Positions 2,579 through 33,654 of a stretch of 38,804 nt of DNA are shown one piece after another (the first letter of the stretch is position 1; every line of letters starts with the position of its first letter). The stretch comes from Candidatus Eiseniibacteriota bacterium (GTDB lineage: Bacteria; JAFGKV01). The notes below the pieces were generated by a model, which made no database searches, had not been told where the DNA came from, and worked only from the letters and a program-made list of their open reading frames with translations. The translations under genes and the position numbers were made by a program. The stretch is from contig JALOPK010000001.1 in the NCBI GenBank assembly GCA_025453925.1, positions 1 through 38,804 on the forward strand, read 5' to 3'.

Positions 2579-2859
2579 ACGTGACGCCGCATGCTCATCC
2601 CCCAGATCGTGGCATGGCCGCCCCTCGGGAGCGATCTGTCTCCTGCGAGCCATGGTGGCCCGTGGCAGCACCACTTCTTGGTGGCGCGGCCCGCGCTCCC
2701 GCGGTGGGTCCGGTTCGCTTGGCGATGCCGACATTACGTGCTCAGCCCGACGTCAGTGGACTCCACACGTACCGGTCGAGTGTAGCTCCGGGCAGACTTC
2801 CCGAGTTGCCCAGGTATGTGGCAAGACGGAAAGCCCGGACACCTCAGATTGCAGGCGTG

Positions 2860-5232
2860 ATGTCAGGGGATTGCCTTCATACTCGGAGCACCGGGGCGGC
2901 CCGCATAGTCGTGGAAACCAGCTTCGAAAGCGCCCACCCGCGTGGGAACCCGCGGCGGAGGCTCTTTCCCTGCTTGGGGACATGGCGCTGCTTCCTGGTC
3001 AGCATCGCGGCGGCCGTGATCGCGGCCGGTTGCGGAGTAGGGACGAGCCCCAAGGAGAGGGCAAGGCTTGGAGTCATGAGTTTGCTCGACCAGGTTTCCG
3101 AATCGGCTCCGGCGGGACCATGGCGCGTTGTGCTCATCTGGAGGAGCAGAACCGAGGGGAAAGACGCGCCCTCCCCTCGCGCACGGCTCATGCTCGACCG
3201 AGGGGCAGCCCCGCGAGGAGAGGTTTTCGTGCGCGTCGCGTTTCCCCGGCGTTGGGGAAACGGCCAAACTCTCGTGTTGCGCCTTGGACGTGACGAGAGA
3301 GTGCTCTCCTCAGCTGCCTGTCCCTTGGGAAGGAGTTGGGCAGAGGCGGTTCTCGACGCTCCAGGCTCTGATGCCGAGTGGCTCGCGTTTGACTACACGG
3401 GCTTGTCGGCCCCTCCCGTTGCGCCGAACGCCGTCGTTGCCGCAGTTCTTGACGATTCGGCCACTGCGAATGACAGGACGCGGTTATCGATGCTGCTGAG
3501 ATGGGCCGCGCGGGACGCGGGCCAAGGCGAAACATGGCTTCAGTTCCGGCGGTCCCGGCTGAAGCTGGACCGGTCTTCCCTCCCGTGCGTCTCGCTCATC
3601 AACGCCGACACGCTCTCCTTTGTGATCCCGCCACAACTCGAGTGGAGGGACTTGACGTTCTCCGCCGCGGGGCTGCGATTCTCAGGTACCCCCGCGACCT
3701 TGGCGGTGCAGGCATTCATCGACGCGTCATGGAAACCGGTTGGTTTGTTCCATGTTGCTGCGCGCGACACGGCGCCCTGCCCCCACACGATAGTCCGGAC
3801 CGGGACGTGGACACATGTCCGGTTCATCACGTCGGGCGATGAGACCGTCATCGGACTTGTCGATCCGATTCTACGCGGAGGCTCGTCGTTCGAACGACGC
3901 AACCTGATCCTCATTGATCTTGACACCGTGCGCGCCGACCGGCTCGGCTGCTACGGGTATCGCGACAGGCCGACTTCACAACGGCTGGATTCGCTGCTCG
4001 AGGCGCGAGGGTTTTTCGTATTCAGGCATGCCCGCTCTGCAGGGCCGCACACGTTGCCCGCCACGGCGAAGTTCCTCACCTCCCGCTACCTCAACGTCCA
4101 CCGCAACGGCGTGGTGCCGTCGGAGTACGAGACCCTGGCGGAGCGCCTGCGGGCAGAGGGGTACTACTGCGCGGCATTCACCGGCGGTGCTATCCTCGAG
4201 GGTCGCGGGTTCGAGCAGGGCTTCCACGAGTACCACTGGACGAACTGGTATGGCAAAGTCGATGAGATCTATCCGGATGCGATCCGCTGGCTTCGGGAGT
4301 CGACATGGCGCCCCTTCTTCCTGTTTGTTCACACCTATGAAGCGCATGGGCCGTACACGCGAGATGTGTTCTGCCGCGGTCTGCCGCGCGGCCGGCTTGG
4401 TGACCTCGCCAAGGGGGAGGCTCTCTTCCGCAAGGCTGAAAGGACGACGATCCGCCGAGGGGCGCTCACGCCGGCGGAGAGCACGTACGTGCAGGCGGCG
4501 TACGATGGCGGGATTCGAGCCGCCTGCGACGCCACCGTGGATCTCCTCGCTCATCTCGATTCCATAGGCGCATGGGGCCAGACGGTCGTCGTGGTGCTCA
4601 GTGACCACGGAGAGGAGTTCTGGGAACACTCAGATATCGGGGCTCACCATTCCCCGGCCTCTCTGTACGCGGAACTCCTCGATGTGCCCTTCATGATCCA
4701 CGATCCCGAGCGCAACTTTGCGGGGGCCGTTTCTCTGTGGAGTGAAGTGAGCACGGTGGATCTGATGCCCACCGTGTGCGATCTCCTCGATATTCCCTTC
4801 CCCGCCGACTGCGACGGTGTGAGCCTCAGGCCTGCCATGGACGGCGAGCCGGTGGCCAGACGCATCCCGATCATGGCCACCAACGATCCCGGTATTCCCG
4901 GAGTCGTTCCCCGGGCATGCGTTTATCGCGGGATGAGGAAATACATCGAACGGGCCGGAGTACATCGGATTGGCGCGGCATCTTCCGTCTCCCGCGCCGG
5001 CGGAGATCCCTACTCGACCACGAGGCAGCTCTTCGACCTCACGGCCGATCCTCGTGAGAGCCAGAACCTCGCGGAGCGCATGCCTGCGGCCAGCGAGGAA
5101 CTCTCAGCCACCCTCGACACCGCGCTCGTCCTGGCGACCGATCCTGCCGCCCGCCCCATGGTACCGGCAGGCCCCGTGATGTCCGAGCGGCTCAGACGTC
5201 AGCTTCGCGTGCTCGGCTACGTTGACGACTAG
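2860..5232 (+). CDS. Paralogous sulfatase-fold lipoprotein (tandem duplicate of 260-2578)
   Basis: The ORF is open from 2575, where its ATG overlaps the upstream TGA as ATGA. The lipobox AVIAAGC (Cys codon 3031-3033) argues for a later start: ATG 2860, GTG 2911 or TTG 2974. It is collinear with gene 1 (SLLDQ..PAGPWRVV, LILIDLDTVRADRLGCYGYRDRPT, SDHGEEFWEH). The nucleophile position reads T-L-P-A-T (nt 4051-4065). The start is uncertain. Confidence 0.75.
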   Translation: MSGDCLHTRSTGAARIVVETSFESAHPRGNPRRRLFPCLGTWRCFLVSIAAAVIAAGCGVGTSPKERARLGVMSLLDQVSESAPAGPWRVVLIWRSRTEGKDAPSPRARLMLDRGAAPRGEVFVRVAFPRRWGNGQTLVLRLGRDERVLSSAACPLGRSWAEAVLDAPGSDAEWLAFDYTGLSAPPVAPNAVVAAVLDDSATANDRTRLSMLLRWAARDAGQGETWLQFRRSRLKLDRSSLPCVSLINADTLSFVIPPQLEWRDLTFSAAGLRFSGTPATLAVQAFIDASWKPVGLFHVAARDTAPCPHTIVRTGTWTHVRFITSGDETVIGLVDPILRGGSSFERRNLILIDLDTVRADRLGCYGYRDRPTSQRLDSLLEARGFFVFRHARSAGPHTLPATAKFLTSRYLNVHRNGVVPSEYETLAERLRAEGYYCAAFTGGAILEGRGFEQGFHEYHWTNWYGKVDEIYPDAIRWLRESTWRPFFLFVHTYEAHGPYTRDVFCRGLPRGRLGDLAKGEALFRKAERTTIRRGALTPAESTYVQAAYDGGIRAACDATVDLLAHLDSIGAWGQTVVVVLSDHGEEFWEHSDIGAHHSPASLYAELLDVPFMIHDPERNFAGAVSLWSEVSTVDLMPTVCDLLDIPFPADCDGVSLRPAMDGEPVARRIPIMATNDPGIPGVVPRACVYRGMRKYIERAGVHRIGAASSVSRAGGDPYSTTRQLFDLTADPRESQNLAERMPAASEELSATLDTALVLATDPAARPMVPAGPVMSERLRRQLRVLGYVDD

Positions 5233-5423
5233 GCGCCCCGCAACGCGGCCTCGCGCGCGGGTCTCATGGGTTGATCTGCCCCGGCGTCGCGCCACCACCG
5301 GCGCCCGGGCTCCGTGGAGTGCGGCAACACGTGCGTGAAAGGAACCACACAGGGCATGCATGATGGGGCCGGCTGGCATGGGAGACGCAGAAGAGGCGGC
5401 GCAGGATCGAAAGGCCGGGAGGG

Positions 5424-8400
5424 CTACTCACCGGCAAGCTCCTGCTGCACGAGGCTGAGATACGCCCGCGATTGACGCGAACGCAGCCCCAGGCGGGCCT
5501 TCTGGTCGGCGATCGCGGCGGACGGGTCTCTCCCCTGGTCACGATATGCGCGGGCGGCCCCGACGGCGACGGCGTCAAGTGACACCCCTCTCGCACCCCG
5601 TGGCTGTCTGGCAAGGATGAGTGTTCGGGCGGCGGTGGCGTACGCATCGAGTGCACAGTCAAGGGCTCCGTGGGCACCGCAGGTATCTCCGAGTTCCAGG
5701 AGCTGACCCGCGTAGGCGAGGGACGGCATGTTGAGGAAGTGGGCATTCGCTAGGGCCGCTGCGGCCTGATCAAAGCGACCCGATTCGCGGCAGGCCAGCG
5801 CAAGATCCCTCCAGTACACCGGCCACAGCGGCTCGAAGAACGCATTCGGCCGCCATGCCGCGGCGGCGCGCGCGAGGTGGGGGATCGCCTCCGCATACCG
5901 CCGTTCACTGCACATCAACATGCCGAGCTGGTGATGGAGCCACGGATCATCCCACAGGAGGAGCGCGTGCCCCAGCTCAGTCTCTGCAGCCTCGACGGCG
6001 CCCAGCATGAGCAGTGCGGTGGCGCGACGGCCCATCAGCTTGCCGTGGGCCACCGAGTTCCTCTCCGTGAGGCGTTCGAGGCGTTCGAGGGCGTCCAGCG
6101 CACGCTGTGGTTCATCCCACCGCCGGTACGCGGCAACCAGATTTGAGAGCACGTACCGCATCAACGCGGAGTCTCCCGTGCGCTCGGCGCGGGAGAGCAG
6201 GCGATCCGCCACCATTGTGAGGGATATGCCTCCCTCCGCCACGGAGACTGCCGTGCTCGGTTGTCCGGTGCGGCCGAGGTGAGAGTCGATGAGCTGAAGA
6301 AGCTCGGTGTCGACGAGGCCAGTCCGGGCGAAACGAGGCAGCGCCCCGGACAGCATGATATCACCCTGGGCGATTCGCCATTCAGGGCCGCGTAATGCGG
6401 CAGGGTCCAGAAACAGCGCGTCGGCGAAAGCTCCGAGCGCCCCCTCTTCGTCGCCTGCGGCGGCGAGCGCAGCACCAAGGTCCGCCTGAGGGACCTCTCC
6501 GTCCATCCCGAATGGGTCGAGTTCGACCGACCGCCGGAAGGCTCCGATGGCATCGTCGAGGCGCCCCTCCCGCCACAGCAGCCACCCGATCCTTGAATGA
6601 TAGGGTGCGTAGAGGTTGCGGCGACTCACAGCCGCCGCGTAGTGTGCGAGCGCCTTCTCGCCCGCGCTGATATCACCCAGCGCCGCCTGTATCTCCGCAT
6701 CCAACGGGTTGAGACGGCCCGCATGGCGCAGTCGATCCTCCCGCCCCGCGTCTCCCGCGCCGGGCGCCGCTTGTTTACCTGGCGCCCCCATGCTTTGGGA
6801 CGCCAAAGGTCGCACGACGAAGAGGAGGGCAGCGATGAACACACACGCCGCGGCCCAAATGGCGCCCGATCCCGAGTGATGCGGCTGACGACTCGCCGTT
6901 TCGGGGGCATCAGCCGCAGCGATCCGTTGCACCCCGTTGATGACTCCCAGAAGTACGAAGAAGCAGAGGGGAAGGACCGTACCCGTGCTCAGCGTCAGCA
7001 CCAGAACGTGCGGGACGAGAAGGGCCACAACTCCGGCACTGGCCGCCTCCGTCCGGGAACGGATTTCCTGGGCAACCGAAGGCCTCCGCAGACGCCGTAT
7101 CCCCGCGCACGCCGCCAGAATCACGGCAGCCAATGCAGCAACACCGAGCACGCCCGTGGACTCTGCGATCTCCAGCCCGAGATTGTGCGGATGCCATCCG
7201 ACGCGCCACTCGTTCAGGAGCGACTCGCGGATCGGCGCGAGGCCGCCGGCCTCGACGATTCCCGCCACAGGCACCCGGACCATGGCCGGGATGAGATGAT
7301 TCCCGAAGCCTACCCCGAGCAGCGGGCGATGCCCGATGACGTCAACCGTCAACCGCCACGTGGCCGCCCTGCGGGTGAGTTCCCCGCTTTCGGCGCGCAG
7401 CGACCACGCCAGCATCAGCATCGCCGCAGGCGCGAGGACCATAACCCACCACCACCCGACCTTCCGGCGTGGCCTCGTCAAGCGAAGAAGCAGTAGGGTC
7501 AAGAGGCCCGCGAGCAGCCCCGCGGCGGCAGAACGGGAGTAGGTGAGAACCGTGGGCGGGAGCAGCAGCGCGGCCGCGCCGATGGCCAGCCATCTCCGGG
7601 GGCCGGACCACGTCCCCGCCAGACTCGCGGCCAGGGTGATCATGGCCGCCCCGTAGGTGGCGAGACCGTTGGCGTGGAGTACGCGCAGCCCGAGCCGTGC
7701 CCGCAGCGCGGTCTCCCACCCCATCTTCGAGGCATAGGCGACCACCCCGGCCGCCGCCGCCGCCGCCACCACCGCCGCCACCGCAAGCAGGGTCGTGAGC
7801 AGCCGGTCCACACGGTCAAGACTGCGCACACTCCCCGCGACGAGAAAGAAGACGACCATCCAGGTCAGAAGCCTGACCCACACAGACAGGCTCTGGTGCG
7901 GATAGGGGGAGACCACAGTGGCGGCGAGGCCAACTGCCGCGAAGGCGAGGACGGCGAGATCCAGCATCGTGGGGCGGTCGAGTTCCAAGACTGCCAGGGA
8001 GGCGGTGATGAGCACGATCGCCGCCATCAGGGATCCACGGCTGCCCTCCAGGAGGAATAGATGCCCGTTCACCGCGCCGAAGGTCACGATTGCGGTGACT
8101 CCCATCCACACGGCGCCTCGGATGGGATCATCGCCCGCCGTTCCCCACACCGACGACACCAGGAATGCACCGTACACCAGTATCAGGAATGGGCTCAGGT
8201 TGACCGAGAAGACCGACCCGAGACTCGTCACCCGGGGAAGGTCGTGCACCGAATCAACGGTGATCAGGAACGCGCATGCCTCAACGGCGATGACTGCCAG
8301 CAGCGCCGGTACGTTCCGCGGGAGGCGAGGCCGCCGAGCCCGCCGCCATCGTTCCCACGCCATGACCGCGGCGAGCGTGGCCATGGTCAGCAGCCCCAAT

Positions 8401-8564
8401 CCCGTGACGGCCCGGCCTCCTGTGGCGCGCCAGAGCGGGAGAGTCGCGGCCAGAAGAACGACGATGGTCACCAGAGAGAAGGAGACGGCCGCCCACGGGG
8501 CCCGCCTTGAGGCACCCGCGCGCGAGCACGCAGTGCCCGCTCGACGCTCAGGCGAGGGCTGCAT
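5424..8564 (-). CDS. O-antigen ligase/polymerase family (Wzy_C-like) polytopic membrane protein fused to a ~430-aa C-terminal TPR-like domain
   Basis: The long ORF reaches 8732, but its first 56 codons overlap the upstream GT4, so I take ATG 8564 (17-nt overlap). It has many hydrophobic helices. Wzy_C-type blocks are TYSRSAAAGLLAGL, GVGFGN and HPHNLGLEIAESTGVLG. The C-terminal helical repeats look TPR-like (YHSRIGWLLWREGRLDDAIGAFRRSVELDP). Confidence 0.8.
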   Translation of the reverse strand: MQPSPERRAGTACSRAGASRRAPWAAVSFSLVTIVVLLAATLPLWRATGGRAVTGLGLLTMATLAAVMAWERWRRARRPRLPRNVPALLAVIAVEACAFLITVDSVHDLPRVTSLGSVFSVNLSPFLILVYGAFLVSSVWGTAGDDPIRGAVWMGVTAIVTFGAVNGHLFLLEGSRGSLMAAIVLITASLAVLELDRPTMLDLAVLAFAAVGLAATVVSPYPHQSLSVWVRLLTWMVVFFLVAGSVRSLDRVDRLLTTLLAVAAVVAAAAAAGVVAYASKMGWETALRARLGLRVLHANGLATYGAAMITLAASLAGTWSGPRRWLAIGAAALLLPPTVLTYSRSAAAGLLAGLLTLLLLRLTRPRRKVGWWWVMVLAPAAMLMLAWSLRAESGELTRRAATWRLTVDVIGHRPLLGVGFGNHLIPAMVRVPVAGIVEAGGLAPIRESLLNEWRVGWHPHNLGLEIAESTGVLGVAALAAVILAACAGIRRLRRPSVAQEIRSRTEAASAGVVALLVPHVLVLTLSTGTVLPLCFFVLLGVINGVQRIAAADAPETASRQPHHSGSGAIWAAACVFIAALLFVVRPLASQSMGAPGKQAAPGAGDAGREDRLRHAGRLNPLDAEIQAALGDISAGEKALAHYAAAVSRRNLYAPYHSRIGWLLWREGRLDDAIGAFRRSVELDPFGMDGEVPQADLGAALAAAGDEEGALGAFADALFLDPAALRGPEWRIAQGDIMLSGALPRFARTGLVDTELLQLIDSHLGRTGQPSTAVSVAEGGISLTMVADRLLSRAERTGDSALMRYVLSNLVAAYRRWDEPQRALDALERLERLTERNSVAHGKLMGRRATALLMLGAVEAAETELGHALLLWDDPWLHHQLGMLMCSERRYAEAIPHLARAAAAWRPNAFFEPLWPVYWRDLALACRESGRFDQAAAALANAHFLNMPSLAYAGQLLELGDTCGAHGALDCALDAYATAARTLILARQPRGARGVSLDAVAVGAARAYRDQGRDPSAAIADQKARLGLRSRQSRAYLSLVQQELAGE

Positions 8565-9759
8565 ACGCGTCGAGTAGGCGCGAGATGTGCGTCTCGGTGG
8601 AGAAGGTTTCAATGACACGCTTGCGGCCGGCCCGGCCCATGTCTTCCGCCTCTTGCGGGGCCGACCAGAGTCTGCGGATGGCCGTGGCCAAAGCGGCCGG
8701 GTCTCCTGGCGGCACCAGCACTCCGTCCACACCGTCCTTCACCACGTCGGGGATGCCGCCGATTCCGCTCGCCACCACGGGCTTCCCCGCGACCCATGAC
8801 TCAAGGATGGAAATCCCAAAGACTTCATACCAGATCGACGGCAGCACTGTGAGACGGCATCCCGCAATGGTCCGCCCCAGCCGGTCGCCCGCCAGATGGC
8901 CGAGAAATCGGACATTATTGAGGCCGAGTTCCGTGGACAGGCGCTCAAGATCCTCGCGCACCGGACCCTCGCCTGCCACAAAGAGCGGCACTTCGGGCAG
9001 TAGCCGCATGGCGCGCAGCAGGATGGGCAGGCCTTTCTCCCGTGAGAGCCTCCCCGCGAAGAGGACATACGGGCCTGCCTCCGGTTCGAGGAGGCGCGGC
9101 GTCACCGGCGCGAAATAGGGGATAACGGTCACCTGCCCGGGGCTCAGACCAAAGTCGATGACCTTCTGACGAACGAAGGCGGTGGGCGCGATAAGCCGTC
9201 GAGCGAAACCCTGGAATGCACCAATTGTCCTGTGTGCCGTCATTTCCGCGGCCGCCAGCAGGCTCCATGACCAGGTGCCGAGACACCGATGCGCCACCGC
9301 CTGCCAGAACCGGCCGCCGCGGCACCGCTCACATGGCCTGCCGTCCGTGAACAGGAGGTAGTTCGGGCAGATGAGCTTGTAGTCATTCAAAGTCTGCACG
9401 ACGGGGATTCCCCGACGAGTCATGGGGGGCAGAATCGAGGGTGAGAGATGGTGATAGATGTTGAAGACGTGCACGATGTCAGGCGCGAACGCGTCAAGCA
9501 CCCGTTCCATTCGCCGTGCCCCCTCGCGATACCATATCACGCGCCCTGCCACGCCCCACCTCTGTCGGCTGGAGAGCTGCCGGAAGTCGATCTCCGGCGG
9601 AAACAGGTCGGCAAAGCGCGCGGGCTCGTTGCGCGGGTGCGCCATGGTAAAGGTCTCGACGGCGTGCCCACGGTCCTCCAAGGCCCGCTTCACGCTGAAC
9701 AAATAGCGTTCCGTGCCGGAACGCACGAATCCGTGCTTGTTGACCAGCAGCACTCTCAT
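8548..9759 (-). CDS. GT4-family (GT-B) glycosyltransferase
   Basis: Start MRVLLVNKHGF at 9759 forms an ATGA overlap with the stop of the upstream gene (9756-9759). The sequence LFAGRLSREKG...EVFGISILESWVAGKPVV is the E-x7-E region typical of group-1 glycosyltransferases. The upstream part of the 585-aa ORF lies inside the neighbouring gene and is Arg/Pro-rich. Confidence 0.85.
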   Translation of the reverse strand: MRVLLVNKHGFVRSGTERYLFSVKRALEDRGHAVETFTMAHPRNEPARFADLFPPEIDFRQLSSRQRWGVAGRVIWYREGARRMERVLDAFAPDIVHVFNIYHHLSPSILPPMTRRGIPVVQTLNDYKLICPNYLLFTDGRPCERCRGGRFWQAVAHRCLGTWSWSLLAAAEMTAHRTIGAFQGFARRLIAPTAFVRQKVIDFGLSPGQVTVIPYFAPVTPRLLEPEAGPYVLFAGRLSREKGLPILLRAMRLLPEVPLFVAGEGPVREDLERLSTELGLNNVRFLGHLAGDRLGRTIAGCRLTVLPSIWYEVFGISILESWVAGKPVVASGIGGIPDVVKDGVDGVLVPPGDPAALATAIRRLWSAPQEAEDMGRAGRKRVIETFSTETHISRLLDAYAALA

Positions 9760-10700
9760 GTTCGGTTCCTGACGCGAAGCATGGCGCCATGAACGATCCC
9801 GGCCATGGTCCCGATGTGAATCGTCGCCAGAATAGCCGGGACACGGTAGAAGGTTCGCCATGAGGGCGCGGCAAAGCAGCCGGCCCGGGCCTTCCGGATC
9901 AGATAGGCGGCGCCCAGCGCCACCATCGCGATCCAAGGCACCCAATGGCCCGTGACACACCCCGCACCGACGAGGGCGAGCCCCGCGGCGCTCTGGAGAA
10001 CCGTTCGGGAATGAAAGGTCCCGCTCGCACCCAGTTGACCCAGGCCGCGGGCATACTGATAGAACTGCCTCAATACCGCTCGGTATGTGGCCCGAGGTCG
10101 CCAGAGGACCGTGGCCGAAGGCCTGTGGGCGACGCCGCCGCAACGGGATGCGCGTTCGATGAACACGCCGTCTTCGGCGCGATTGAATGGGGGATGCTCG
10201 GGGAACCCACCAGCGGCCTCCCACGCCCAGCGGGGGAACGCAAGAGACCGGGCAGTCGGATTGACCGTCATGCCCGCGATCCGGATGTCGGGCGTGAGGG
10301 AACATCGGGCAACGCAGGCCTCGAAGTGCGTCGAAGGATTCGGAGTCACCCCTCCGATGACGAGGCCCAGAGCAGGATCATTCTCCAGGGGCGCCGCGAT
10401 TGCGGCGACCCATTCGCAGGACGGGATGCATCCGGCGTCGGTGACTGCGATGATTTCCGCTACGCTCGCGGCGATGCCGAGATTACGCCCGTGGGCAATA
10501 TCGGCACCCGGGGCTTCGATCACGTGAAGCCCGGGCACCTTGCCGCTTCGCTGCTTCGCGAGGGCCGGCGTGCCGTCCGTGGAACCCCCATCGACGATGA
10601 TCACTTGATCCGCGGGCCTGGTCTGGATCGAAAGGGCATCCAGCAGCGGCACGATGGATGACGCCTCGTTCCGCACGGTGACGACGACCGCCACGCGCAT
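9756..10700 (-). CDS. GT2-family glycosyltransferase with C-terminal transmembrane helices (GtrB/ArnC/DPMS-like architecture)
   Basis: 314 aa. The N-terminus MRVAVVVTVRNEASSIVPLLDALSIQTRPADQVIIVDGGSTDGT is a classic GT2 start. The C-terminal ~90 aa are hydrophobic (LALVGAGCVTGHWVPWIAMVALGAAYLI, VPAILATIHIGTMAGIV). Confidence 0.85.
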   Translation of the reverse strand: MRVAVVVTVRNEASSIVPLLDALSIQTRPADQVIIVDGGSTDGTPALAKQRSGKVPGLHVIEAPGADIAHGRNLGIAASVAEIIAVTDAGCIPSCEWVAAIAAPLENDPALGLVIGGVTPNPSTHFEACVARCSLTPDIRIAGMTVNPTARSLAFPRWAWEAAGGFPEHPPFNRAEDGVFIERASRCGGVAHRPSATVLWRPRATYRAVLRQFYQYARGLGQLGASGTFHSRTVLQSAAGLALVGAGCVTGHWVPWIAMVALGAAYLIRKARAGCFAAPSWRTFYRVPAILATIHIGTMAGIVHGAMLRVRNRT

Positions 10701-10701
10701 G

Positions 10702-11748
10702 TCATGCCCCCCAGAGCAAAAGGTAGTGCTGAGCCAGGGCCTCCCAGGTATGGGCCGCGGCGAAGCAATGGGCCTGTTCGAGCATCTGCGCAGACGGGCC
10801 TTGGGCGATCACACGGAGCGCCTGATCGGCGAATGTGGCGGGATCAGGCGCGGTAAGGAACAGCTCCGACGCCTGTGGCATGAGCTTGAGATAGTCCTCC
10901 TTGACCGGGTTGTGGTACACCGTAAAGAGAGGACGTCGCCGTACCATGGTCTCCAGCATGGAGAGATAGCCCGACGTGAGCACCAGGGTCGACGACTCGA
11001 TGATCGGTCCGGGGTCGGGGATGAACCCATGGAACGTGGCACGGATGCCCTCATCCCGCGCGAGTTGCTCCAGTGTCGCGCGCCAAGGACCGTCACCGCA
11101 GACGGTAAGAGGGATGTCGATCCCGTGATGGTTTCTCAAGAGTCCAAGGCCGCGAAGATAGATGTCCAACCCCGTGTCGGGCGCCAGCCTTCCGACAAAC
11201 GCCGCGCTATGGGCCTCGGGCGCGGCGGGCACCAGTTCCGGCGCGGTGCAGGCACCGTAGGTGACCACGGTCGGATGGATGCCCAACCATCGCACCAGGA
11301 AATGGCCGATGCACAGCGACCCCCGCGTCAGCCGCTCTGCCATGTCGTGGTAGAGCCTGGCGCGCCTCTGTACAGGGATGCGCATCTCATACCCGTGGTA
11401 GGTCATGAAGCGGGGACGATGAGACGACAGCGCCAGAGACGGGCCCGTCCAATGGAGAAGGCTGTAGACGCCATGGAAATGGATGATGTCCGCGTCCAGA
11501 AGAAGATGCCGATGGTCCATCCACCATCGCCATGCGGCGGGATAGCGAGCCCGGCCCGCGCGGGTGGGCATCCGGAACACCCGCGCGTCGGCCAGCGAGT
11601 CTTCGTCGGGCAGGCGTGGATCGTGCTTCGGGGCCACGAGGGTCAGTGTGATGCCGTGGGAGGCGAGCGAGGGAACAAGCCCCGTCATGTGCCGCTCGAC
11701 ACCGCCGATCGCCGGCGGCAACCGCTCAGCCACCATCAGGACGCGCAT
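10702..11748 (-). CDS. GT4-like (GT-B) glycosyltransferase
   Basis: Start MRVLMVAERLPPAIGGVERH at ATG 11748 overlaps the upstream gene by 23 nt. The longer 409-aa version would overlap by about 200 nt. The stop lies 1 nt before the next gene's ATG. The GT-B-like layout is AFVGRLAPDTG...CGDGP. Confidence 0.75.
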   Translation of the reverse strand: MRVLMVAERLPPAIGGVERHMTGLVPSLASHGITLTLVAPKHDPRLPDEDSLADARVFRMPTRAGRARYPAAWRWWMDHRHLLLDADIIHFHGVYSLLHWTGPSLALSSHRPRFMTYHGYEMRIPVQRRARLYHDMAERLTRGSLCIGHFLVRWLGIHPTVVTYGACTAPELVPAAPEAHSAAFVGRLAPDTGLDIYLRGLGLLRNHHGIDIPLTVCGDGPWRATLEQLARDEGIRATFHGFIPDPGPIIESSTLVLTSGYLSMLETMVRRRPLFTVYHNPVKEDYLKLMPQASELFLTAPDPATFADQALRVIAQGPSAQMLEQAHCFAAAHTWEALAQHYLLLWGA

Positions 11749-14700
11749 GATCTCCCGTTCTCCCCTCGGTGGCCTTGTCATTGACCAAGGCCCAGTACGC
11801 CTCTCGCACACACCCCCGGCGCGGGACCAGATGGCCGTGCTCATCCGGGACTCGATCCCCCGGGATACCCATCCTGCGATAGTTTCGCCTGGTCTCGGAG
11901 GCCATGAGGCCAAGAAGCCGGCGGGTCTCACCGCTGAGCGACCCGTCTTCCTGCAGGCTGGTTACTCCCATCGCGACGAGGCGCAATGCCGACGAGTAAT
12001 CGGCCTGACCATAGGCAGTGCGGGCGAGGCCGAGCAGCCGTTCGGCATAGGTCTGGGTCGGCATGAGGAGGAAGTGCGCCATGGCATACGACCGGGCGGC
12101 ATCAGGGATTCTGCCCGCCTGTTGTTGTGCCTGGGCGAGATCGTGCCAGACTTGCCACCAAGAACCGTCTGCCGGCACGCCCGGGTCCCAGGACAGCGCG
12201 GCCAACTCCAACTCGCGAATGGCCTCCTCCCGGCGACCCTGCAGGGTGAGGGAGGCAGCGAGGAGGGCGCGGGCCTTGGCTCCATCGGAGCCCGCCAGGC
12301 ATGCTCGAAGTATGTTCTCTGATTCTTCTGGCCGTTTCTGCCCGAGTGCGGCAATGCCCGCCAGTTTCTGCAGGTGAGCCCGCTCCCGGCTTCCGCCCGG
12401 AAGGCGATCCACGAGTGAAGAGAGAACGCGAAAGGCCTCTTCTGGGAGTCCCCACCGCTCATACACGGCGGCGACTCTCTCACCGTGGCGCATCGTCGTG
12501 ACGGCATCGTGCGCGTGAGCGCCGGCCATGTACCGAGAGGCGAGGAGCGAGAACCCGATGCTGCCGCCCGAGGTGCGCGGCTTTTCGGCCGCGGCCCCCT
12601 GTCCGGTATGTTGTTCGATGATGCTGACCATCCGCGCATCCAGGACGCCGTTCGCGGCGAAACGCTCGAAGGCGGCGGAGAGCCGTATCTGGTCGTTTTC
12701 GAGGACCCAGTCGATCGGATTGATTGGATCGGCTGAAAGCCCCATGGCTCGCAAGAAGCACGTTACGGCCTCGTCGCCGCGGCCCGTGGCGACATACGCA
12801 AGGGCGAGGTCGGACATATGCTCTCGGAAGTTGGGACCGACCCAGGTCGCCAGGGTCAGATCCTGTGCCCGCTGCGAGATGAAGGCCTCGGACAGGCTCC
12901 GGCCAAGGGTTTCGTCCTGGATGCGGACAGCCTCCTCGAAATGGCCCAGCGCCTCCTCGAGTCGTTGCTGGCCCCAGAGGCGCCATCCCAGACGCACGTG
13001 GTAAGCGGGATGCCGCGGCCTCAGGCGGCACGCATCCCGGTACCACCGGAGGGCGTCTGCATCCCCCGCCAGATCGCCCGACAGCGCCCGCAGCTCGGCA
13101 TTCAGGGGCATCAGGCGGCACGCCATTTCGATGCGCGCCGGCGACGCCGGTGGTGGTGGCATGCACTTGTCCGCCCCGATAGATGTCCTCACGAGAGTCC
13201 CCGCGAGCATCGGCCGGACCACGCACACCAGCATGACCGTGATCACTGTCAGACTCAGCACGAGTGGTCGCCCCCTGACGCTGCGCAACCTCTCTTCCCT
13301 CGCCTCGAGTGCAGGCAATGACCCTCCCGCCGGGGGGTTCAGCCTTACCGTTGCCGCCGCAAGGCCCAGCAGGAGCCAGAACTCCAAAGGAAGCAAAGAC
13401 GGCGCGCTCAGGCTCAACACGAGCTGGTGCGGAATCAACAGGGAAACCATGGCCGCTCCTATCGCGGCGAGGACTCCACGGACGGGCCCCGCTGATCGTG
13501 ACCATCCCCGCACCACCAGGACGGCAGCCGCGGCGACCATGCCCAGGAAGACGACGAGCCCCGCGGCGCCCGCGCTTTCGAACACCTGCAGGAATAGGTT
13601 GTGGGAATGCCATTGGCTGGCCGGGCTCGCTAGAGGATCCGGATAAGCCCCCGCCGCCCACGCCGCCTGGTTGGCATTGAGGCCCCGGGGCAGGGGGTCG
13701 TAGAACGCCATCACGGCCGGATCGCCAAGCCCGCGTCCAAGAAACGGCCTCCGGGAGACGGAATCGGCCACCATGCGCCACACATTCCGCCGCCAGGATG
13801 CCTCCTGCTGACCCCAGAGCGTCACCAAGGCCCCGGCGACGACAATGAGAGCCCCCGCAGTCACCAGCGCGGGCAGGACGCGGCGCCACGCACTCTGGCG
13901 CGACAGCGGTCCCCTTCGAGCCGCCCACCCCAGCACCGCCAGCCCCGCCAGAAGCCCGGCCGCAGCGGAACGCGAGTACGTGAGCATGAGAATGGGGGCC
14001 GAGAACACCGCCGCGCCATGGGCCAACCCGACTGCCCACCCGGCCTTCCTCACTAAAGCGAAGAGCGCCCCCAAGACTACGATCACCCCCGCGGCGGCCG
14101 CCACGGGGACGATGCCTCTCATCGCGGGAGCGGAAGGGAGCTGCACACCGGCTCGGGCGGCGAGCGACACCCCCACCGATGCCACTGCCGCCGCCGCAGC
14201 CACCCCGATGGTGATCCGGCCCCCGGGAGACCGTGCCCGGAGCGCGCCGAGGGCCAGTGTTATTATGGTTGCCGCGTAGATACCCACGGCATTGGGGTGC
14301 ATGGAGGCCATGCTGAGGCGGGCACGAAGTGCGGCGCCCGCTGATGCATGCTGCGCATAGTTCCACACCCCGTGCAGCCCCGCCACAGCGAGGACGACTG
14401 CCACGGTCAGCATGACTCGCACCGTTCGCGGCGGGGTGCCGGCGTCACGGCTTCGCGACAAAAGCACGAAGGCGAGCGCTCCGGTCCCGAGGCGCATCAG
14501 CATCTCCGCGCTGTAGTGGACATACTGCGCCGTCACCGTGGCCAGGAGGGCGCAGCCCAGGAAGAGCCCCGTCATGACCTCCACGGCCGCGATTTCCCGT
14601 ACCCGGACGCCGCTGTCCCTCCTGATGGGGAGGTGCGCGACGCCGACCAGCAAGATCCCGCTGAGCAGAAAAAAACGCTCATCACCGAGCGCGAAGAACC

Positions 14701-15109
14701 CGCCGTTGAGCGCACCGTACGTGACGGCCGCCCACACCGCCGCTTCAACCATGGAGATCCGGCTCAGTGACACCATCAACGCCATCGAACCGATGAGCCC
14801 GTAATGGAGCAGCCTGTAGTAGGGGCCGAGATGAGTCTGCCATACCGACTGCTGGGTCACGACCTCTGGCAGGGACGCGATGGCTGCGGCAGTGATGAGG
14901 GTTCCTGCCGTTCCCACTGCCGCCAGGCCCAACGTCCTGGAGAAATCGATCCGAAGGCCTCGAACCGCAGTGGTCAGAACGGCGGAGCCGATGATCAGGA
15001 CGGTCACGCCGACCAACTCGACGATCACGGCAGCAGGAAGCAACCGGGCATAGGTGGCGCATACCCCGATGAGAAGCACGCCGGGTACGCTTTCGATCGC
15101 ACCCCTCAT
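11726..15109 (-). CDS. Second Wzy_C-like polytopic membrane protein with C-terminal TPR-like domain (full-length paralogue of 5424-8564)
   Basis: 1127 aa. ATG 15109 overlaps the upstream stop as ATGA. Wzy_C-type blocks are LTYSRSAAAGLLAGL, GRGLGD and WHSHNLFLQVFESAGAAGL. The C-terminal repeats are collinear with the paralogue (YHVRLGWRLWGQQRLEEALGHFEEAVRIQD; MAHFLLMPTQTYAERLL versus NAHFLNMPSLAYAGQLL). Confidence 0.8.
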   Translation of the reverse strand: MRGAIESVPGVLLIGVCATYARLLPAAVIVELVGVTVLIIGSAVLTTAVRGLRIDFSRTLGLAAVGTAGTLITAAAIASLPEVVTQQSVWQTHLGPYYRLLHYGLIGSMALMVSLSRISMVEAAVWAAVTYGALNGGFFALGDERFFLLSGILLVGVAHLPIRRDSGVRVREIAAVEVMTGLFLGCALLATVTAQYVHYSAEMLMRLGTGALAFVLLSRSRDAGTPPRTVRVMLTVAVVLAVAGLHGVWNYAQHASAGAALRARLSMASMHPNAVGIYAATIITLALGALRARSPGGRITIGVAAAAAVASVGVSLAARAGVQLPSAPAMRGIVPVAAAAGVIVVLGALFALVRKAGWAVGLAHGAAVFSAPILMLTYSRSAAAGLLAGLAVLGWAARRGPLSRQSAWRRVLPALVTAGALIVVAGALVTLWGQQEASWRRNVWRMVADSVSRRPFLGRGLGDPAVMAFYDPLPRGLNANQAAWAAGAYPDPLASPASQWHSHNLFLQVFESAGAAGLVVFLGMVAAAAVLVVRGWSRSAGPVRGVLAAIGAAMVSLLIPHQLVLSLSAPSLLPLEFWLLLGLAAATVRLNPPAGGSLPALEAREERLRSVRGRPLVLSLTVITVMLVCVVRPMLAGTLVRTSIGADKCMPPPPASPARIEMACRLMPLNAELRALSGDLAGDADALRWYRDACRLRPRHPAYHVRLGWRLWGQQRLEEALGHFEEAVRIQDETLGRSLSEAFISQRAQDLTLATWVGPNFREHMSDLALAYVATGRGDEAVTCFLRAMGLSADPINPIDWVLENDQIRLSAAFERFAANGVLDARMVSIIEQHTGQGAAAEKPRTSGGSIGFSLLASRYMAGAHAHDAVTTMRHGERVAAVYERWGLPEEAFRVLSSLVDRLPGGSRERAHLQKLAGIAALGQKRPEESENILRACLAGSDGAKARALLAASLTLQGRREEAIRELELAALSWDPGVPADGSWWQVWHDLAQAQQQAGRIPDAARSYAMAHFLLMPTQTYAERLLGLARTAYGQADYSSALRLVAMGVTSLQEDGSLSGETRRLLGLMASETRRNYRRMGIPGDRVPDEHGHLVPRRGCVREAYWALVNDKATEGRTGDHARPDGG

Positions 15110-17043
15110 CGCCCGCTCCTTCCCGCCAGGTCCTCATACACGTGCGCCATGGTGGCCGCCACGGGCTCCCATGCGTAGCGGTCGCGAACCCTGGCCTGGA
15201 GCTGCCCGCCCATGGCCGTCACACCGGCAGGGTCATCCGCCAGGGCTTGTATCCGTGCGGCAAGATCGCCCTCATCACCCCGGCGGAATACATGGCCCAG
15301 ACCATCCAGGGCCTCCAGGTGGGGCGGGATGTCACTCGCAAGCACACACAATCCGTAACTCATCGCCTCGAGCAGCGCCAGCGGTAGACCCTCCACCTCC
15401 GACGCCGTGACAAAGAGATACGCATTGCTGAGGAGTTCCTCGAATACGGTGCCATACACGTATCCGGTGAACACGACGCGAGGATCCGTCGCCATGGCGT
15501 GAAGCCCGTCAACGTAGTCCTGACTGTGGCTCTCTCCGCCCGCAATCACAAGACGCTTATCCGTCGGCACTCGACCGAAGGCGCGGATGAGAAGCTCGAG
15601 CGACTTCTCGGGCACCAATCTCCCTACGCTCAGGATGAATGAACCCGGCTGGAGGCCCCACGCGCGTATGGCGTCCGCAGGGCGCCGCACCGGATCGTTC
15701 ACTCCGTTGGGGGCGTATACCGGATACCCGTGGTAGTGGTCCCGGTAGTGTGTCTCCAGCGCCCGGGACACCACTACCGTCCGATTTGGGAACCGGGCGG
15801 ATGCCCACTCACCTGCGCGGAGCACGGCGCGGGCGACGCGACCCCATTTCTGGCGCTGCCAATCGAGACCCTGCACGGTCACCACGACGCGTCGCCCGAA
15901 AACCCGAGGGAGCCACGCAAGCAGCGATGGACCCAATGCCTGGTAGTGAACGATGTCGTCCTCTTGAAAGAGGACATGCAGCGTGGAGAAGAGCGTGTGG
16001 GTGATGGCCTCAAGGTGCTTCGTGCGGATGCTGGGGAGGTGACGCAATTCCACGCCATGATAGGCGCGCCGCTGCGCGGTGTAGTGCGGCCGGCAGTACA
16101 CCGCGACCCGGAAGCCCTGCTTCGCCAGACGTGTGCTCAGCTCTTCCACCGAGCGCTCGACCCCCCCATACGTCGCCGGGATTCCCCGGGATCCGAGAAT
16201 GGCGATGCGCGGCTTCTCCAGGGGGTCAACCCGACGGTCGACGTGCTCCATCATGTCGGCGAGTAATGCATCACTCGCGGGAACCGTCCCGGGCTCGGGT
16301 GTCTTCACGGCCATGATCAGTTCGTCGAACTGATGCCGGGGCATGGCCCACCGGATGTCGGTGCCGGCGCACGTCCTCATCAGGTGGATAATCCAGGCCG
16401 GCGAGGAAGTTTCCCCGGCGATCCACACCACCCTCGCCCGCGTGCGGCCCATGGCGTCTGCCAGGCGCTCCATCGCCCCGGCATCAGCGGCCAGGCGCAG
16501 GTCACCCACCACGCGATCCCCGATCCATGGCTGGGTGGTGATCGCGTCGGCGAGCCGGGCCACAGCAGACTCCGACTCGAGGACCAGTACTCGGCGGACC
16601 CCGATGCCCCGCCGGACGAGGGCCTCTCCGAGGCGACCCGCAAGGATACGCCATACCGATACTCCGGCGTAGGTCATGACCCATCCCACGGACAGGCAGA
16701 GGCGGGAGTAGAGAAAGGGCGCATCGGCATTGTACGTGCCGAGCCTCAGGAGGTGGAGCGTGGAGACCACCAGGACCACGTTGATCAGCATGGCGCGCAG
16801 GAGCAGCACCGCCACCCGCCACCCCTCCGACCGCCGCGGCAACCGGTACCCACCGCAGAGGGCCAGGGCGCCTACCGCGATACATGCGCTAAGGAACGTG
16901 AGCAGGGCATACCTCGGCGCCCAAGGCACGATGCTCGCGAATAGCCCGGTGCGGAAGCGAAACAGGTAGGCAAGTCCGTGCGCGGCCACGACCGCGGCGA
17001 CGTCCCCGGCAATCAGCACCATGACGGCAGCGCGACCTCTCAT
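15106..17043 (-). CDS. Chimeric protein: WbaP-like N-terminal membrane + Rossmann-like module (aa 1-~275) fused to a DUF1972-type GT4 glycosyltransferase (aa ~278-645)
   Basis: 645 aa. ATG 17043 overlaps the upstream stop as ATGA. The N-terminus VLIAGDVAAVVAAHGLAYLFRFR is followed by about 4 helices and then RRVLVLESESAVARLADAI..GDRVVG. The C-terminal part, PRIAILGSRGIPATYGGVERSVEEL...ASEVEGLPLALLEAMSYG, is a group-1 GT with a DUF1972-like start. Confidence 0.8.
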   Translation of the reverse strand: MRGRAAVMVLIAGDVAAVVAAHGLAYLFRFRTGLFASIVPWAPRYALLTFLSACIAVGALALCGGYRLPRRSEGWRVAVLLLRAMLINVVLVVSTLHLLRLGTYNADAPFLYSRLCLSVGWVMTYAGVSVWRILAGRLGEALVRRGIGVRRVLVLESESAVARLADAITTQPWIGDRVVGDLRLAADAGAMERLADAMGRTRARVVWIAGETSSPAWIIHLMRTCAGTDIRWAMPRHQFDELIMAVKTPEPGTVPASDALLADMMEHVDRRVDPLEKPRIAILGSRGIPATYGGVERSVEELSTRLAKQGFRVAVYCRPHYTAQRRAYHGVELRHLPSIRTKHLEAITHTLFSTLHVLFQEDDIVHYQALGPSLLAWLPRVFGRRVVVTVQGLDWQRQKWGRVARAVLRAGEWASARFPNRTVVVSRALETHYRDHYHGYPVYAPNGVNDPVRRPADAIRAWGLQPGSFILSVGRLVPEKSLELLIRAFGRVPTDKRLVIAGGESHSQDYVDGLHAMATDPRVVFTGYVYGTVFEELLSNAYLFVTASEVEGLPLALLEAMSYGLCVLASDIPPHLEALDGLGHVFRRGDEGDLAARIQALADDPAGVTAMGGQLQARVRDRYAWEPVAATMAHVYEDLAGRSGR

Positions 17044-18221
17044 GCGGGCTCGCCTTCGTCTCTCGATGTGGCATCGCGGAGTGTGTGGCCGCCGGCACTG
17101 GCGACGGGGCGGCTTCGGAGGGCCGGATCATCGGGCGGGGACATCCGGAGGGGCGACCATACCCATTTCGTTCCGCGCTCGGCGCCGACGCGCCAGTAGA
17201 GAGGCCGGCCGGCCGTGAGGGCACCCATCCGGTCAGGGAGAATGCAGTGCTCCTGCTGCACAATCCCGCCGGCACCGAAGAGGAAGGCGGGATCCGGTGA
17301 GATCTCGACGCGGTAGGAGGTTGCTCCCGGCACCGGACTCCACTGCAACGCACGAGTCTCGTGGTGTTCCTGCGACCCTGCGGGGCTGGTGGTTCGGCGC
17401 GCATTGCGGCGTGAGGCAAGCCACCATAGCAGCCTCGTCGCCGGATCCGCACGGTCTGCCAGATACCGCAGACCGCTCCGGTAGAGGTGGTCCTCACCTC
17501 GGGAGGGCGTCCTGCCCACCGTTCCTCCAACCCGATGAACCATGCCGCTCTTCGGTACGACGCAGAGCTTCCATCCCCTCCCCCTCAGGCGGTCCGACAG
17601 ATCGACGTCCTCGAAGAAGATGAAGAAGCGTTCATCGAATCCGCCCACTTCCTCGAAGGCCGAGCGTCGCACCAGGAATCCGGCACCCGAGAGATAGGGC
17701 ACCTCCGCAGGGTCGTCTCCGAACCACACCGCGCGGTGCCAGCGCTGGTATGGTGGTGTGAACCGGGCACCCGTGCCAAGGCGTCTCAGGATCATCCGCC
17801 AGAAGAGGAACGTGAGCAACGTGGGAGGAACCGGGACCACGCTCCATTGCCAATTCAAGCGCGCATCAACCCACTGCCGGGGCCCCACGGCGCCAAGGTT
17901 TGGCGCGGACGCCAGATGATCCGTGAGGGTGCGGAGCGCACCAGGCAGGAAGTATGCGTCGGGGTTCAGAAAGAGCAGGAATGGCGCTCTCCCCATGGCG
18001 GCGCCCTGGTTGCACGCCGCCGAGAACCCCCTGTTCGCGGTGTTCACGAACAACTGGGCGCCCGGGGCGGCATTGCGCACCACGTCGGCTCCGCCATCTG
18101 TGGAAGCATTGTCCACGACGATGATCTCCACCCCCGGCTCCCGCATGATCGAATCGAGGCAGGCGCCAATCCAGCCGGCGTCGTCGTGGATGAGGATGAC
18201 TACTGTGACGAGTGGATCCAT
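17040..18221 (-). CDS. GT2-family glycosyltransferase (rhamnosyltransferase-like core) with a ~100-aa C-terminal extension
   Basis: 393 aa. The start is MDPLVTVVILIHDDAGWIGACLDSIMREPGVEIIVVDNASTDGG. FFEDVDLSDR is an ED-x-DL block. The C-terminal LQWSPVPGATSYRVEISPDPAF...LYWRVGA resembles an FN3-like module. Confidence 0.85.
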   Translation of the reverse strand: MDPLVTVVILIHDDAGWIGACLDSIMREPGVEIIVVDNASTDGGADVVRNAAPGAQLFVNTANRGFSAACNQGAAMGRAPFLLFLNPDAYFLPGALRTLTDHLASAPNLGAVGPRQWVDARLNWQWSVVPVPPTLLTFLFWRMILRRLGTGARFTPPYQRWHRAVWFGDDPAEVPYLSGAGFLVRRSAFEEVGGFDERFFIFFEDVDLSDRLRGRGWKLCVVPKSGMVHRVGGTVGRTPSRGEDHLYRSGLRYLADRADPATRLLWWLASRRNARRTTSPAGSQEHHETRALQWSPVPGATSYRVEISPDPAFLFGAGGIVQQEHCILPDRMGALTAGRPLYWRVGAERGTKWVWSPLRMSPPDDPALRSRPVASAGGHTLRDATSRDEGEPA

Positions 18222-19665: not shown

Positions 19666-19822
19666 ATCTCCCCCCGGCGGACTTCGATGGCGGTTCGTTC
19701 GCGGGGAAGTCGCGTCTCTCTCCCACTGCCTGCGGGGGAGATCACCGCCATCGCAACGGATCCTGCGCACCCCCGGGGTGCCGAACCGCCGGGGCAAGAG
19801 GGCACAGAACTGCTCGTTCGCA

Positions 19823-22303: not shown

Positions 22304-22306
22304 TGC

Positions 22307-23806: not shown

Positions 23807-24218
23807 TATGGAGTCCCGCGCGCAACAGAGAGAGGCGAGGCCACTGGTTCGCCGGGCATTCCCACTTCCGCGGGACGGTTCTCGCAGGATTTCAGGATCA
23901 TCCGTCGTTGAGAGTGCCGGTGATCGGCGTTCCCGCCGACCGGTCGTGAGAGGAATGGATCGGCGCGGCGTGGCGGCACACCCGTCTCTGTGAAGAGGAA
24001 CGGCTGCCCGCCCTTCAAATGCGGCGCACAGCATTCCGTTTCGTCACGGACTCGGTGCACATGCGTGGGGCGAGCCGTTCTGGTCGCCGGAATCGCGCGC
24101 CCGCCCCGCTGAGAGAACGAAGTTGAACGGGCCGCCCGCATACCACGGGAGCCCCTCGGTGGGGAAACCGCCCGGCCGACGCCCTGCCGCGAGATCACTG
24201 GCCGCCGCGATCCAGGTA

Positions 24219-33651: not shown

Positions 33652-33654
33652 CGG

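Follow-up and report, generated by a model that had tools for sequence, protein, structure and literature searches.

Two diverged Wzy_C-TPR proteins in one glycan operon of an uncultured bacterium and a proposed division of periplasmic transfer reactions

We analyzed a 38,804-nucleotide stretch of DNA from Candidatus Eiseniibacteriota bacterium (contig JALOPK010000001.1 of GCA_025453925.1; hereafter the window), in which one glycan operon encodes two large proteins, A and B, that each join a membrane domain of the Wzy_C superfamily to a C-terminal tetratricopeptide repeat (TPR) domain. The reading we favor, with a probability of about 0.55, is that A and B are anciently diverged, non-redundant members of a rare Wzy_C (GT-C-B fold) clade and that they would carry out different reactions in the periplasm. 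What is shown is the homology of the two proteins, their conserved residues, a topology by prediction, and that the pair is old and conserved.

5424 to 8564, minus strand: gene A, Wzy_C-TPR protein of the A type, 1046 amino acids (aa) from an ATG at 8564 (open reading frame (ORF) list, Pfam, AlphaFold)
11726 to 15109, minus strand: gene B, Wzy_C-TPR protein of the B type, 1127 aa (ORF list, Pfam, AlphaFold)

A and B align collinearly in BLASTP (30% identity over 759 residues, E 1e-47, with a further 33% over 238 N-terminal residues), an E-value that rules out a chance likeness. Their DNA gave zero matches at E <= 1e-3 in blastn with a word size of 7. Against the Pfam Wzy_C model (PF04932, gathering cut-off 31.7 bits), residues 331-478 of A reach 42.4 bits and residues 366-522 of B reach 52.8 bits, and TPR_2 and TPR_12 exceed their Pfam cut-offs in both proteins. 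The segment LTYSRSAAAGLLAGL occurs unchanged in A and B, and the paired motifs WHPHN/WHSHN, RLNPLDAEIQA/RLMPLNAELRA and YHSRIGWLLW/YHVRLGWRLW are present in the two proteins. An earlier model-generated reading of the letters (the first-pass annotation) had described Wzy_C-TPR fusions of 1046 and 1127 aa with shared SRSAAAGLL-type and HxHN blocks, collinear C-terminal motifs and well-diverged nucleotide sequences; on each of these it is borne out, and the case proves stronger than it had put it. The ORF that holds gene A stays open to 8732 (5424 to 8732, minus strand); a GTG at 8471 is an alternative start, and in the JGI call on a near-identical contig the protein starts 31 codons downstream and has 1015 aa. 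Both ORFs are intact and both AlphaFold models are confident, which rules out a pseudogene reading. As judged from sequence, A and B are paralogues and intact Wzy_C-superfamily proteins with conserved catalytic-type residues.

7131 to 7574, minus strand: A, Wzy_C core (aa 331-478), with YSR344S, R399 and WH458xH460N in predicted periplasmic loops (Pfam, invariant columns)
13544 to 14014, minus strand: B, Wzy_C core (aa 366-522), with R380, R440 and H501/H503 (Pfam, alignment to 7TPG_B)

A profile of the membrane domain, built from 11 family members and searched against solved structures, matched structures of one kind only, the WaaL ligase of Cupriavidus metallidurans (7TPG_B, E 1e-7). Profile searches of the PDB with the full-length proteins returned TPR proteins only, and WaaL was seen only with the membrane domain alone. 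The WaaL chain (413 residues) aligns to profile positions 183-515 of 576, so that the profile overhangs it at both ends; because the alignment covers the central part only, the family has extra helices at the N-terminus and one after the core. R440 and H503 (B numbering) are invariant in the family and R380 and H501 nearly so; R380, R440, H501 and H503 align with R191, R265, H311 and H313 of WaaL, and the Wzy_C domain lies above the Pfam cut-off in 12 of 12 family members. The conserved His is needed for activity in Wzy_C enzymes (PMC9829042), and in WaaL and PglS Arg residues are proposed to coordinate the pyrophosphate of undecaprenyl pyrophosphate (Und-PP), with His as the proposed catalytic base (PMC12800693). 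On this marginal sequence similarity we assign the membrane domain of A and B as homologous to WaaL ligase. Both copies retain the full Arg/Arg/His set and are therefore probably active on lipid-PP-linked glycans.

6771 to 8564, minus strand: A, membrane domain (aa 1-598), 17 predicted transmembrane helices (DSSP of the AlphaFold model)
13190 to 15109, minus strand: B, membrane domain (aa 1-640), 19 predicted transmembrane helices, N-terminus inside (AlphaFold)
5436 to 6743, minus strand: A, predicted periplasmic TPR solenoid (aa 608-1043) with a small beta insert at aa 729-738 (AlphaFold, Pfam, Foldseek)
11765 to 13141, minus strand: B, predicted periplasmic TPR solenoid (aa 657-1115) with a beta insert at aa 801-852 (AlphaFold, invariant columns, Foldseek)

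AlphaFold models calculated on family alignments reached a predicted local distance difference test score (pLDDT) of 80.7 and a predicted template modeling score (pTM) of 0.79 for A, and 78.0 and 0.76 for B. Both proteins are predicted to have the N-terminus inside, and in the models an extra transmembrane helix follows the WaaL-like core (565-598 in A, 614-640 in B). Four helices lie between the Wzy_C loop and the TPR domain, which therefore comes to lie on the side of the Wzy_C loop, periplasmic in WaaL-family enzymes. The charges of the short loops of B follow the positive-inside rule, with Lys plus Arg making up 16 of 72 residues on the cytoplasmic side versus 3 of 70 on the periplasmic side, two of the latter being the conserved R262 and R264. 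The TPR domains of A and B are thus predicted to face the periplasm, and helix count and loop charges both argue against the cytoplasmic location that had been named beforehand as refuting the first-pass proposal. The domains, of 435-460 residues, are modeled as helical-hairpin solenoids of about 20-24 helices, matching the TPR-like domain of more than 400 aa claimed from the letters; a small conserved beta element breaks the solenoid around a family-invariant Trp (W801 in B). Foldseek matched both models to TPR proteins only, the best being OGT, SPY (SPINDLY) and consensus or designed CTPRs (E about 1e-6), and the TM-scores to OGT are modest (0.35-0.55 on target), a generic TPR similarity.

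Both genes belong to a run of eleven genes from 24034 to 5424, all on the minus strand and with gaps of -23 to +90 nucleotides (nt), in accord with the single operon proposed earlier. Their order is Phosphodiest (two genes), GT2, Wzx, GT2, membrane-anchored GT4, B, GT4, GT2, GT4, A (GT, glycosyltransferase family). The same arrangement recurs in GCA_900174595.1, where two relatives, P0004 and P0007, share one 472-kb contig on which the order is Phosphodiest, GT2, Wzx, GT2, transmembrane GT4, B type, GT4, GT2, GT4, A type. The glycosyltransferases and Wzx of that operon are 44-70% identical to those of the window; B and P0004 are 41% identical, and A and P0007 33%. Parts of the arrangement recur in two further metagenome lineages. 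The first of these (L006, with L009 and L010) has the GT4-GT2-GT4 genes, a family member in the A position and a Sulfatase-family gene opposite; at the contig edge of L006, upstream of GT4-GT2-GT4, a second family member is represented by its 86 C-terminal residues (E 3e-11, family profile). The Sulfatase-family neighbor in L006 (8918-11230, 770 aa) is 42% identical to its homologue in the window and sits opposite the A-type gene, so the association of Sulfatase family and A type appears conserved. A further relative, P0005, occupies the B position on its own contig.

14042 to 14251, minus strand: B-type-specific insertion (aa 287-356), two extra predicted transmembrane helices, 297-319 and 328-356 (alignment block, AlphaFold)

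This two-helix insertion, of about 65-75 residues, is common to B, P0004 and P0005, whereas A, P0007, P0006 and the relatives with a single copy lack it; its helices are joined by R-[AS]-G-[VW]-x-x-P. The A and B types also differ at three fixed residues, at which all or most single-copy relatives have the A state, and these features suggest that the A type retains the ancestral state of the single-copy relatives and that the B type is derived. Distance trees, run with and without Dayhoff recoding and per domain, join B with P0004 at 100% bootstrap and A with P0007 at 94-97%. The duplication appears old and both copies kept, because the diverged pair and its synteny recur and the B type is set apart by its insertion; read most simply, one old duplication took place, the B type is derived, and both copies have been retained ever since. 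Both copies also appear to be needed, since other uncultured lineages keep the same pair. The first-pass annotation had held that both copies are maintained, which agrees with the finding of a positional orthologue of each in the syntenic operon of GCA_900174595.1. It had also named, as the refuting case, recent and redundant duplicates within one orthologous polymerase clade. Of this, membership of one clade stands and the recency does not, given the synteny and the 30% identity.

These data bear directly on the possibility that the pair is a recent, tandem-like and redundant duplication with no division of labor. A and B are mutually closest in the superfamily and share all conserved catalytic-type residues, as redundancy would have it, but protein identity has fallen to 30% with no residual DNA similarity, each copy has its positional orthologue in GCA_900174595.1 beside operon genes that are 44-70% identical, and the B-type insertion is common to three lineages. 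We consider redundancy very improbable and largely refuted by the synteny.

Judged by our searches, A and B are each other's closest relatives among all retrievable proteins and belong to a small, well-separated clade. A word-indexed homologue search of 5.8 billion proteins returned only A and B themselves and a near-identical JGI contig. An exhaustive HMMER profile search, run over 1.84 billion representatives, yielded about 14 collinear relatives, ten of them full-length or nearly so, and the clade is thus very rare. Matches beyond approximately rank 12 are generic TPR proteins, which swamp the list and make the total of 19,695 matches uninformative on family size. Each of the ten relatives that were looked up stands for a cluster of one or two sequences; the sole taxon labels, Anaerolineae, are those of two distant ones. 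In a search with the membrane domain the next-nearest Wzy_C proteins scored at most 100 bits, compared with about 560-600 for A and B, and 1 of 26 carried TPR. Scans of genome, viral and metagenome contig collections gave no further locus, and all family members come from uncultured organisms. Annotation pipelines already name the domain combination ('TPR repeat protein/O-antigen ligase'); our literature searches turned up nothing published about a large fusion of this kind.

Two of the relatives have informative surroundings. The single-copy relative P0008 (L004 4526-11390, on a contig labeled Anaerolineae family J111) lies in a glycan operon with genes for a Sulfotransfer_3 protein, GT2, GT4, GT2, a PMT_2 (GT-C) protein and a WecG-family transferase, which hints at sulfated or otherwise decorated glycans in the pathways of the family. 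The most distant member, P0068 (L007 of GCA_964448115.1; 13410-16106 and 20080-21477), is directly followed by a gene for a TMEM260_N + TPR protein, likewise membrane-bound, glycosyltransferase-like and equipped with TPR, and a plain 465-aa Wzy_C protein is encoded 7 kb from the P0068 gene.

We propose that the glycosyltransferases of the operon, stated as seven, would build a lipid-linked oligosaccharide, that the single Wzx would flip it, and that A and B would perform two different periplasmic transfer reactions on the flipped glycan. Each is, in this view, a polytopic enzyme of the inner membrane. Both proteins likely use this Wzx-flipped, Und-PP-linked product at a WaaL-like periplasmic site, where the Arg, Arg and His of the periplasmic loops would bind the pyrophosphate. 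The extra helix after the WaaL-like core would return the chain across the membrane and leave the TPR solenoid in the periplasm. The solenoid likely binds, and would hold, the acceptor or a partner protein, and the modeled B-type two-helix insertion lies beside the active-site hairpin. In the likeliest split, one copy would polymerize the chain and the other would pass it en bloc to its end acceptor, either a protein or a lipid/core. We infer the donor substrate, what the TPR domains do and which copy has which activity.

The first-pass annotation had likewise suggested that one copy polymerizes while the other transfers. Two intact Wzy_C enzymes agree with that suggestion, but the phylogeny separates no polymerase from a transferase and specific signatures are lacking. 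Because A and B belong to one clade, phylogeny assigns neither copy to either activity. The split is a reasonable hypothesis and one of several, which we rank as a polymerase with an en-bloc transferase, then two transferases, then two polymerases and last plain redundancy.

Two paralogous O-oligosaccharyltransferases can coexist in one genome, as is reported for Acinetobacter with its general PglL and a pilin-specific TfpO or PglS. Along these lines, A and B might both be en-bloc transferases (O-oligosaccharyltransferases or ligases), with no polymerase, a single long oligosaccharide as the product of the operon, and two acceptor classes chosen by the divergent TPR domains; among the alternatives this is the one we take most seriously, while holding it unlikely. 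In its favor is the layout of a Wzy_C core, an extra helix and a periplasmic C-terminal domain, which is that of PglL/PglS and not of the 12-helix WaaL (PMC12800693, PMC9829042). WsfB, a predicted O-oligosaccharyltransferase for an S-layer, is described as Wzy_C plus a TPR motif (PMC2943079). OGT, the top structural match, uses its TPR to bind the acceptor, but the match is a generic TPR similarity (TM-score 0.35-0.55 on target). The seven glycosyltransferases of the stated count could build an oligosaccharide that needs no polymerization, no Wzz/PCP protein was found among the scanned proteins of the window, and the distant relative P0068 adjoins a TMEM260_N + TPR protein. Set against this, the PglL_A and Wzy_C_2 signatures were found in 0 of 12 family members, and the window yielded no candidate acceptor protein.

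Paralogous Wzy-like polymerases also occur together in one pathway, as with HfsC and HfsI of Caulobacter, a redundant type of pair. Two polymerases in the window would make different linkages or polymers or form a heteromeric complex, with the TPR domain as a scaffold or chain guide in place of Wzz/PCP-OPX. The genes lie inside a Wzx-type glycan operon for which no PCP/OPX was found; TPR proteins escort polymers through the periplasm in synthase-dependent systems (bioRxiv 10.1101/2022.04.04.486985), and TfpW, with a periplasmic TPR, both polymerizes and transfers (bioRxiv 10.1101/2020.04.19.049825). Yet there is a single flippase in a single contiguous operon, redundancy of the HfsC/HfsI type does not predict strict co-retention of both types, and neither copy matches any polymerase model. 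We think this arrangement quite unlikely. We entertain, with considerable doubt, a more novel reading, in which the pair would be a self-contained finishing module of a kind not described before: one protein would polymerize the flipped repeat unit and the other attach the product to envelope proteins, the TPR domains replacing both a chain-length regulator and an acceptor-recognition domain.

Several observations weigh against ancient divergence into different reactions. The sequences do not tell which copy, if either, polymerizes. PglL_A and Wzy_C_2 gave no match in A or B (Pfam, E <= 1) and neither is one of the 25 families matched by a majority of the 12 members; TIGR04370 gave none in NCBIfam at E <= 0.1. 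Polymerase models (TIGR04370, O-ag_pol_Wzy/EpsG) overall had no match at E <= 0.1 in NCBIfam or E <= 1 in Pfam, a weak negative as Wzy proteins are very diverse. Among the large ORFs of the window no initiating phosphoglycosyl transferase domain of the Bac_transf or WecA type was found, no acceptor protein or lipopolysaccharide-core gene was identified in the window, and no RNA runs containing the gene were found. The distance trees pair (A, P0007) with (B, P0004), and P0005 with P0006, in place of A-type and B-type clades that cross lineages, and their deeper nodes are not resolved. The three fixed differences between the types are too few to indicate functional divergence, since splitting these six sequences in another, arbitrary way yields as many. 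The grouping of P0005 with P0006 could reflect amino-acid composition (Gly, Ala, Arg and Pro (GARP) content 0.40 versus 0.26-0.31), gene conversion or independent duplications, and independent duplications or gene conversion are possible behind the A and B types as a whole. Since the trees lack A-type and B-type clades, the deep orthology of the copies rests on the insertion and the synteny.

The remaining genes of the operon are listed from its upstream end.

20867 to 24034 (20867-22303 and 22307-24034), minus strand: Phosphodiest-family paralogue pair at the operon head, type I phosphodiesterase/nucleotide pyrophosphatase (Pfam)
19823 to 20776, minus strand: GT2 glycosyltransferase (Pfam), L002 orthologue 70% identical
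18229 to 19797, minus strand: Wzx-type flippase, the only one of the operon (Pfam Polysacc_synt, Polysacc_synt_3), L002 orthologue 58% identical
17040 to 18221, minus strand: GT2 glycosyltransferase (Pfam)
15106 to 17043, minus strand: membrane-anchored GT4, 645 aa, directly upstream of B with a 4-nt overlap (Pfam GT4 + DUF1972, residues 280-640)
10702 to 11748, minus strand: GT4 glycosyltransferase with a 23-nt overlap with the end of gene B (Pfam), L002 orthologue 58% identical
9756 to 10700, minus strand: GT2 glycosyltransferase between the paralogues (Pfam), L002 orthologue 65% identical
8548 to 9759, minus strand: GT4 glycosyltransferase between the paralogues with a 17-nt overlap with the start of gene A (Pfam Glycos_transf_1, Glyco_transf_4)

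By the stated count the operon holds one Wzx and seven glycosyltransferases; the ordered gene list names six of the latter. The start codon of Wzx is uncertain, its L002 orthologue having 473 aa, and the GT4 at 8548 to 9759 has a 54.5% identical L002 orthologue in the same position. The N-terminal third of the 645-aa GT4 consists of several membrane helices, and its catalytic C-terminal part is GT4/DUF1972, not a phosphoglycosyl transferase; the L002 orthologue is 55% identical and has a weak match to CoA_binding_3, a domain typical of WbaP-type initiating transferases. The two Phosphodiest paralogues are 24% identical to each other, and the Pfam match of the second is weak (E 1.6e-4, under the cut-off). 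No Wzz/PCP or Wza/OPX domain was found by Pfam among the scanned large ORFs of the window. A scan of the stretch 5000-17500 found no sigma-70-like promoter, and the few terminator-like matches of the operon scan all lie within genes.

260 to 5232 (260-2578 and 2575-5232), plus strand: Sulfatase-family paralogue pair, convergent with gene A, alkaline-phosphatase superfamily (Pfam)

The two Sulfatase-family proteins of the window are 42% identical to each other, and each has approximately 300-440 N-terminal residues with no Pfam match; the first carries a lipoprotein-like signal (…LAVIGC). They read W-T-V-P-A-T at the site of the C-x-P-x-R formylglycine motif of sulfatases, and for this reason may act as phosphotransferases or hydrolases with a Thr nucleophile and not as true sulfatases. 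Together with the Wzy_C-TPR and Phosphodiest genes they give the locus three duplicated pairs.

The window has a G+C content of about 65%; its source DNA occurs in wetland metagenomes, and a second assembly, L001, is 99.98% identical. At the upstream end of the gene string lie two large minus-strand ORFs with no Pfam match (24219-25601 and 25417-26577), one of which opens with a lipoprotein-like signal, MRRLLILLVAGCS. The listed ORFs share 185 nt, which makes a wrong start probable for one of them at least; their products could be envelope or export components or acceptor proteins. A DegT-type aminotransferase gene (27401-28573) adjoins a plus-strand gene (28736-30382) for a UDP-glucose/GDP-mannose dehydrogenase-family protein of 548 aa, a length clearly above that typical of the family; as the two genes adjoin, the locus itself probably provides amino-sugar or uronic-acid building blocks of the glycan. 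The next plus-strand gene given here (30677-31723) encodes 348 aa that are nearly all ankyrin repeats behind an N-terminal hydrophobic segment, with an Ank_2 match unusually strong for a bacterial protein (E 5e-84). A minus-strand cluster at 31795-35939 looks unconnected with the glycan operon; it comprises an ABC exporter (ABC_membrane + ABC_tran), a 258-aa protein that matches Peptidase_S26 weakly, and an 'uncharacterised nucleotidyltransferase' (NTP_transf_5).

Nearly every Wzx-dependent surface glycan is completed by a Wzy_C enzyme (Wzy, WaaL, PglL/PglS), and O-oligosaccharyltransferases of this type are working tools of bioconjugate vaccine production. How such enzymes choose acceptors is poorly understood, and A and B offer a natural experiment on bolting recognition onto the fold. 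If one copy were a TPR-guided protein glycosylase it would define a new class of O-oligosaccharyltransferase, and a TPR domain that stood in for Wzz/PCP would represent a new way of handling chains in the periplasm; a finishing module would mean that uncultured lineages have a new, TPR-guided class of O-oligosaccharyltransferases and polymerases. The superfamily itself and the pipeline-labeled domain combination are known already. New are the rare 17/19-helix clade, the very large predicted periplasmic TPR domain with motifs of its own, and the conserved two-copy arrangement with its type-specific insertion.

Among known systems, characterized Wzy proteins have about 350-500 residues and are not known to carry TPR domains. 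Like A and B, Wzy polymerases are encoded in operons with Wzx and several glycosyltransferases, and many share the Wzy_C family, whereas A and B match no polymerase-specific model and no Wzz partner was found for them in the window. WaaL (7TPG/7TPJ) resembles A and B in its homologous core, the aligned Arg/Arg/His, a presumed Und-PP-linked donor and a periplasmic active site. It differs in having 413 residues and no extra domain, whereas A and B have 17 and 19 helices, of which several N-terminal ones and a C-terminal one are additional, plus TPR, so that A and B depart from the compact WaaL form of approximately 400 residues with no periplasmic domain. PglL, PglS and TfpO share with A and B a Wzy_C domain with an essential His (PMC12800693, PMC9829042), and PglS is described as a 13-helix protein whose sizeable C-terminal domain lies in the periplasm and may recognize acceptor proteins (PMC12800693, PMC9829042). 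A and B have the PglL/PglS layout of Wzy_C core, extra helix and C-terminal periplasmic domain, but the last is a TPR solenoid four times larger and not of the PglL type, the helices are many more, and PglL_A and Wzy_C_2 are absent. In their modeled layout A and B come closer to O-oligosaccharyltransferases of the PglL/PglS type than to WaaL.

Known glycan transferases with a periplasmic C-terminal domain or a TPR are PglS and PglL (PMC12800693, PMC9829042), WsfB (PMC2943079) and TfpW (bioRxiv 10.1101/2020.04.19.049825). TfpW of Pseudomonas aeruginosa polymerizes a glycan and transfers it to protein, and has a periplasmic TPR domain (bioRxiv 10.1101/2020.04.19.049825). Its fold is ArnT/Emb-like with a DDX motif and not Wzy_C, an analogy to A and B and not homology. 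We group it with other GT-C enzymes that bear periplasmic TPR domains (TMEM260/PMT_2 + TPR), a combination also seen in the TMEM260_N + TPR neighbor of P0068. The closest system by described architecture is WsfB of Paenibacillus alvei, whose gene belongs to a glycan biosynthesis cluster and whose Wzy_C domain is described as followed by a TPR motif at the C-terminus; it differs from A and B in its Gram-positive host, and the passages cited note no paralogue pair (PMC2943079).

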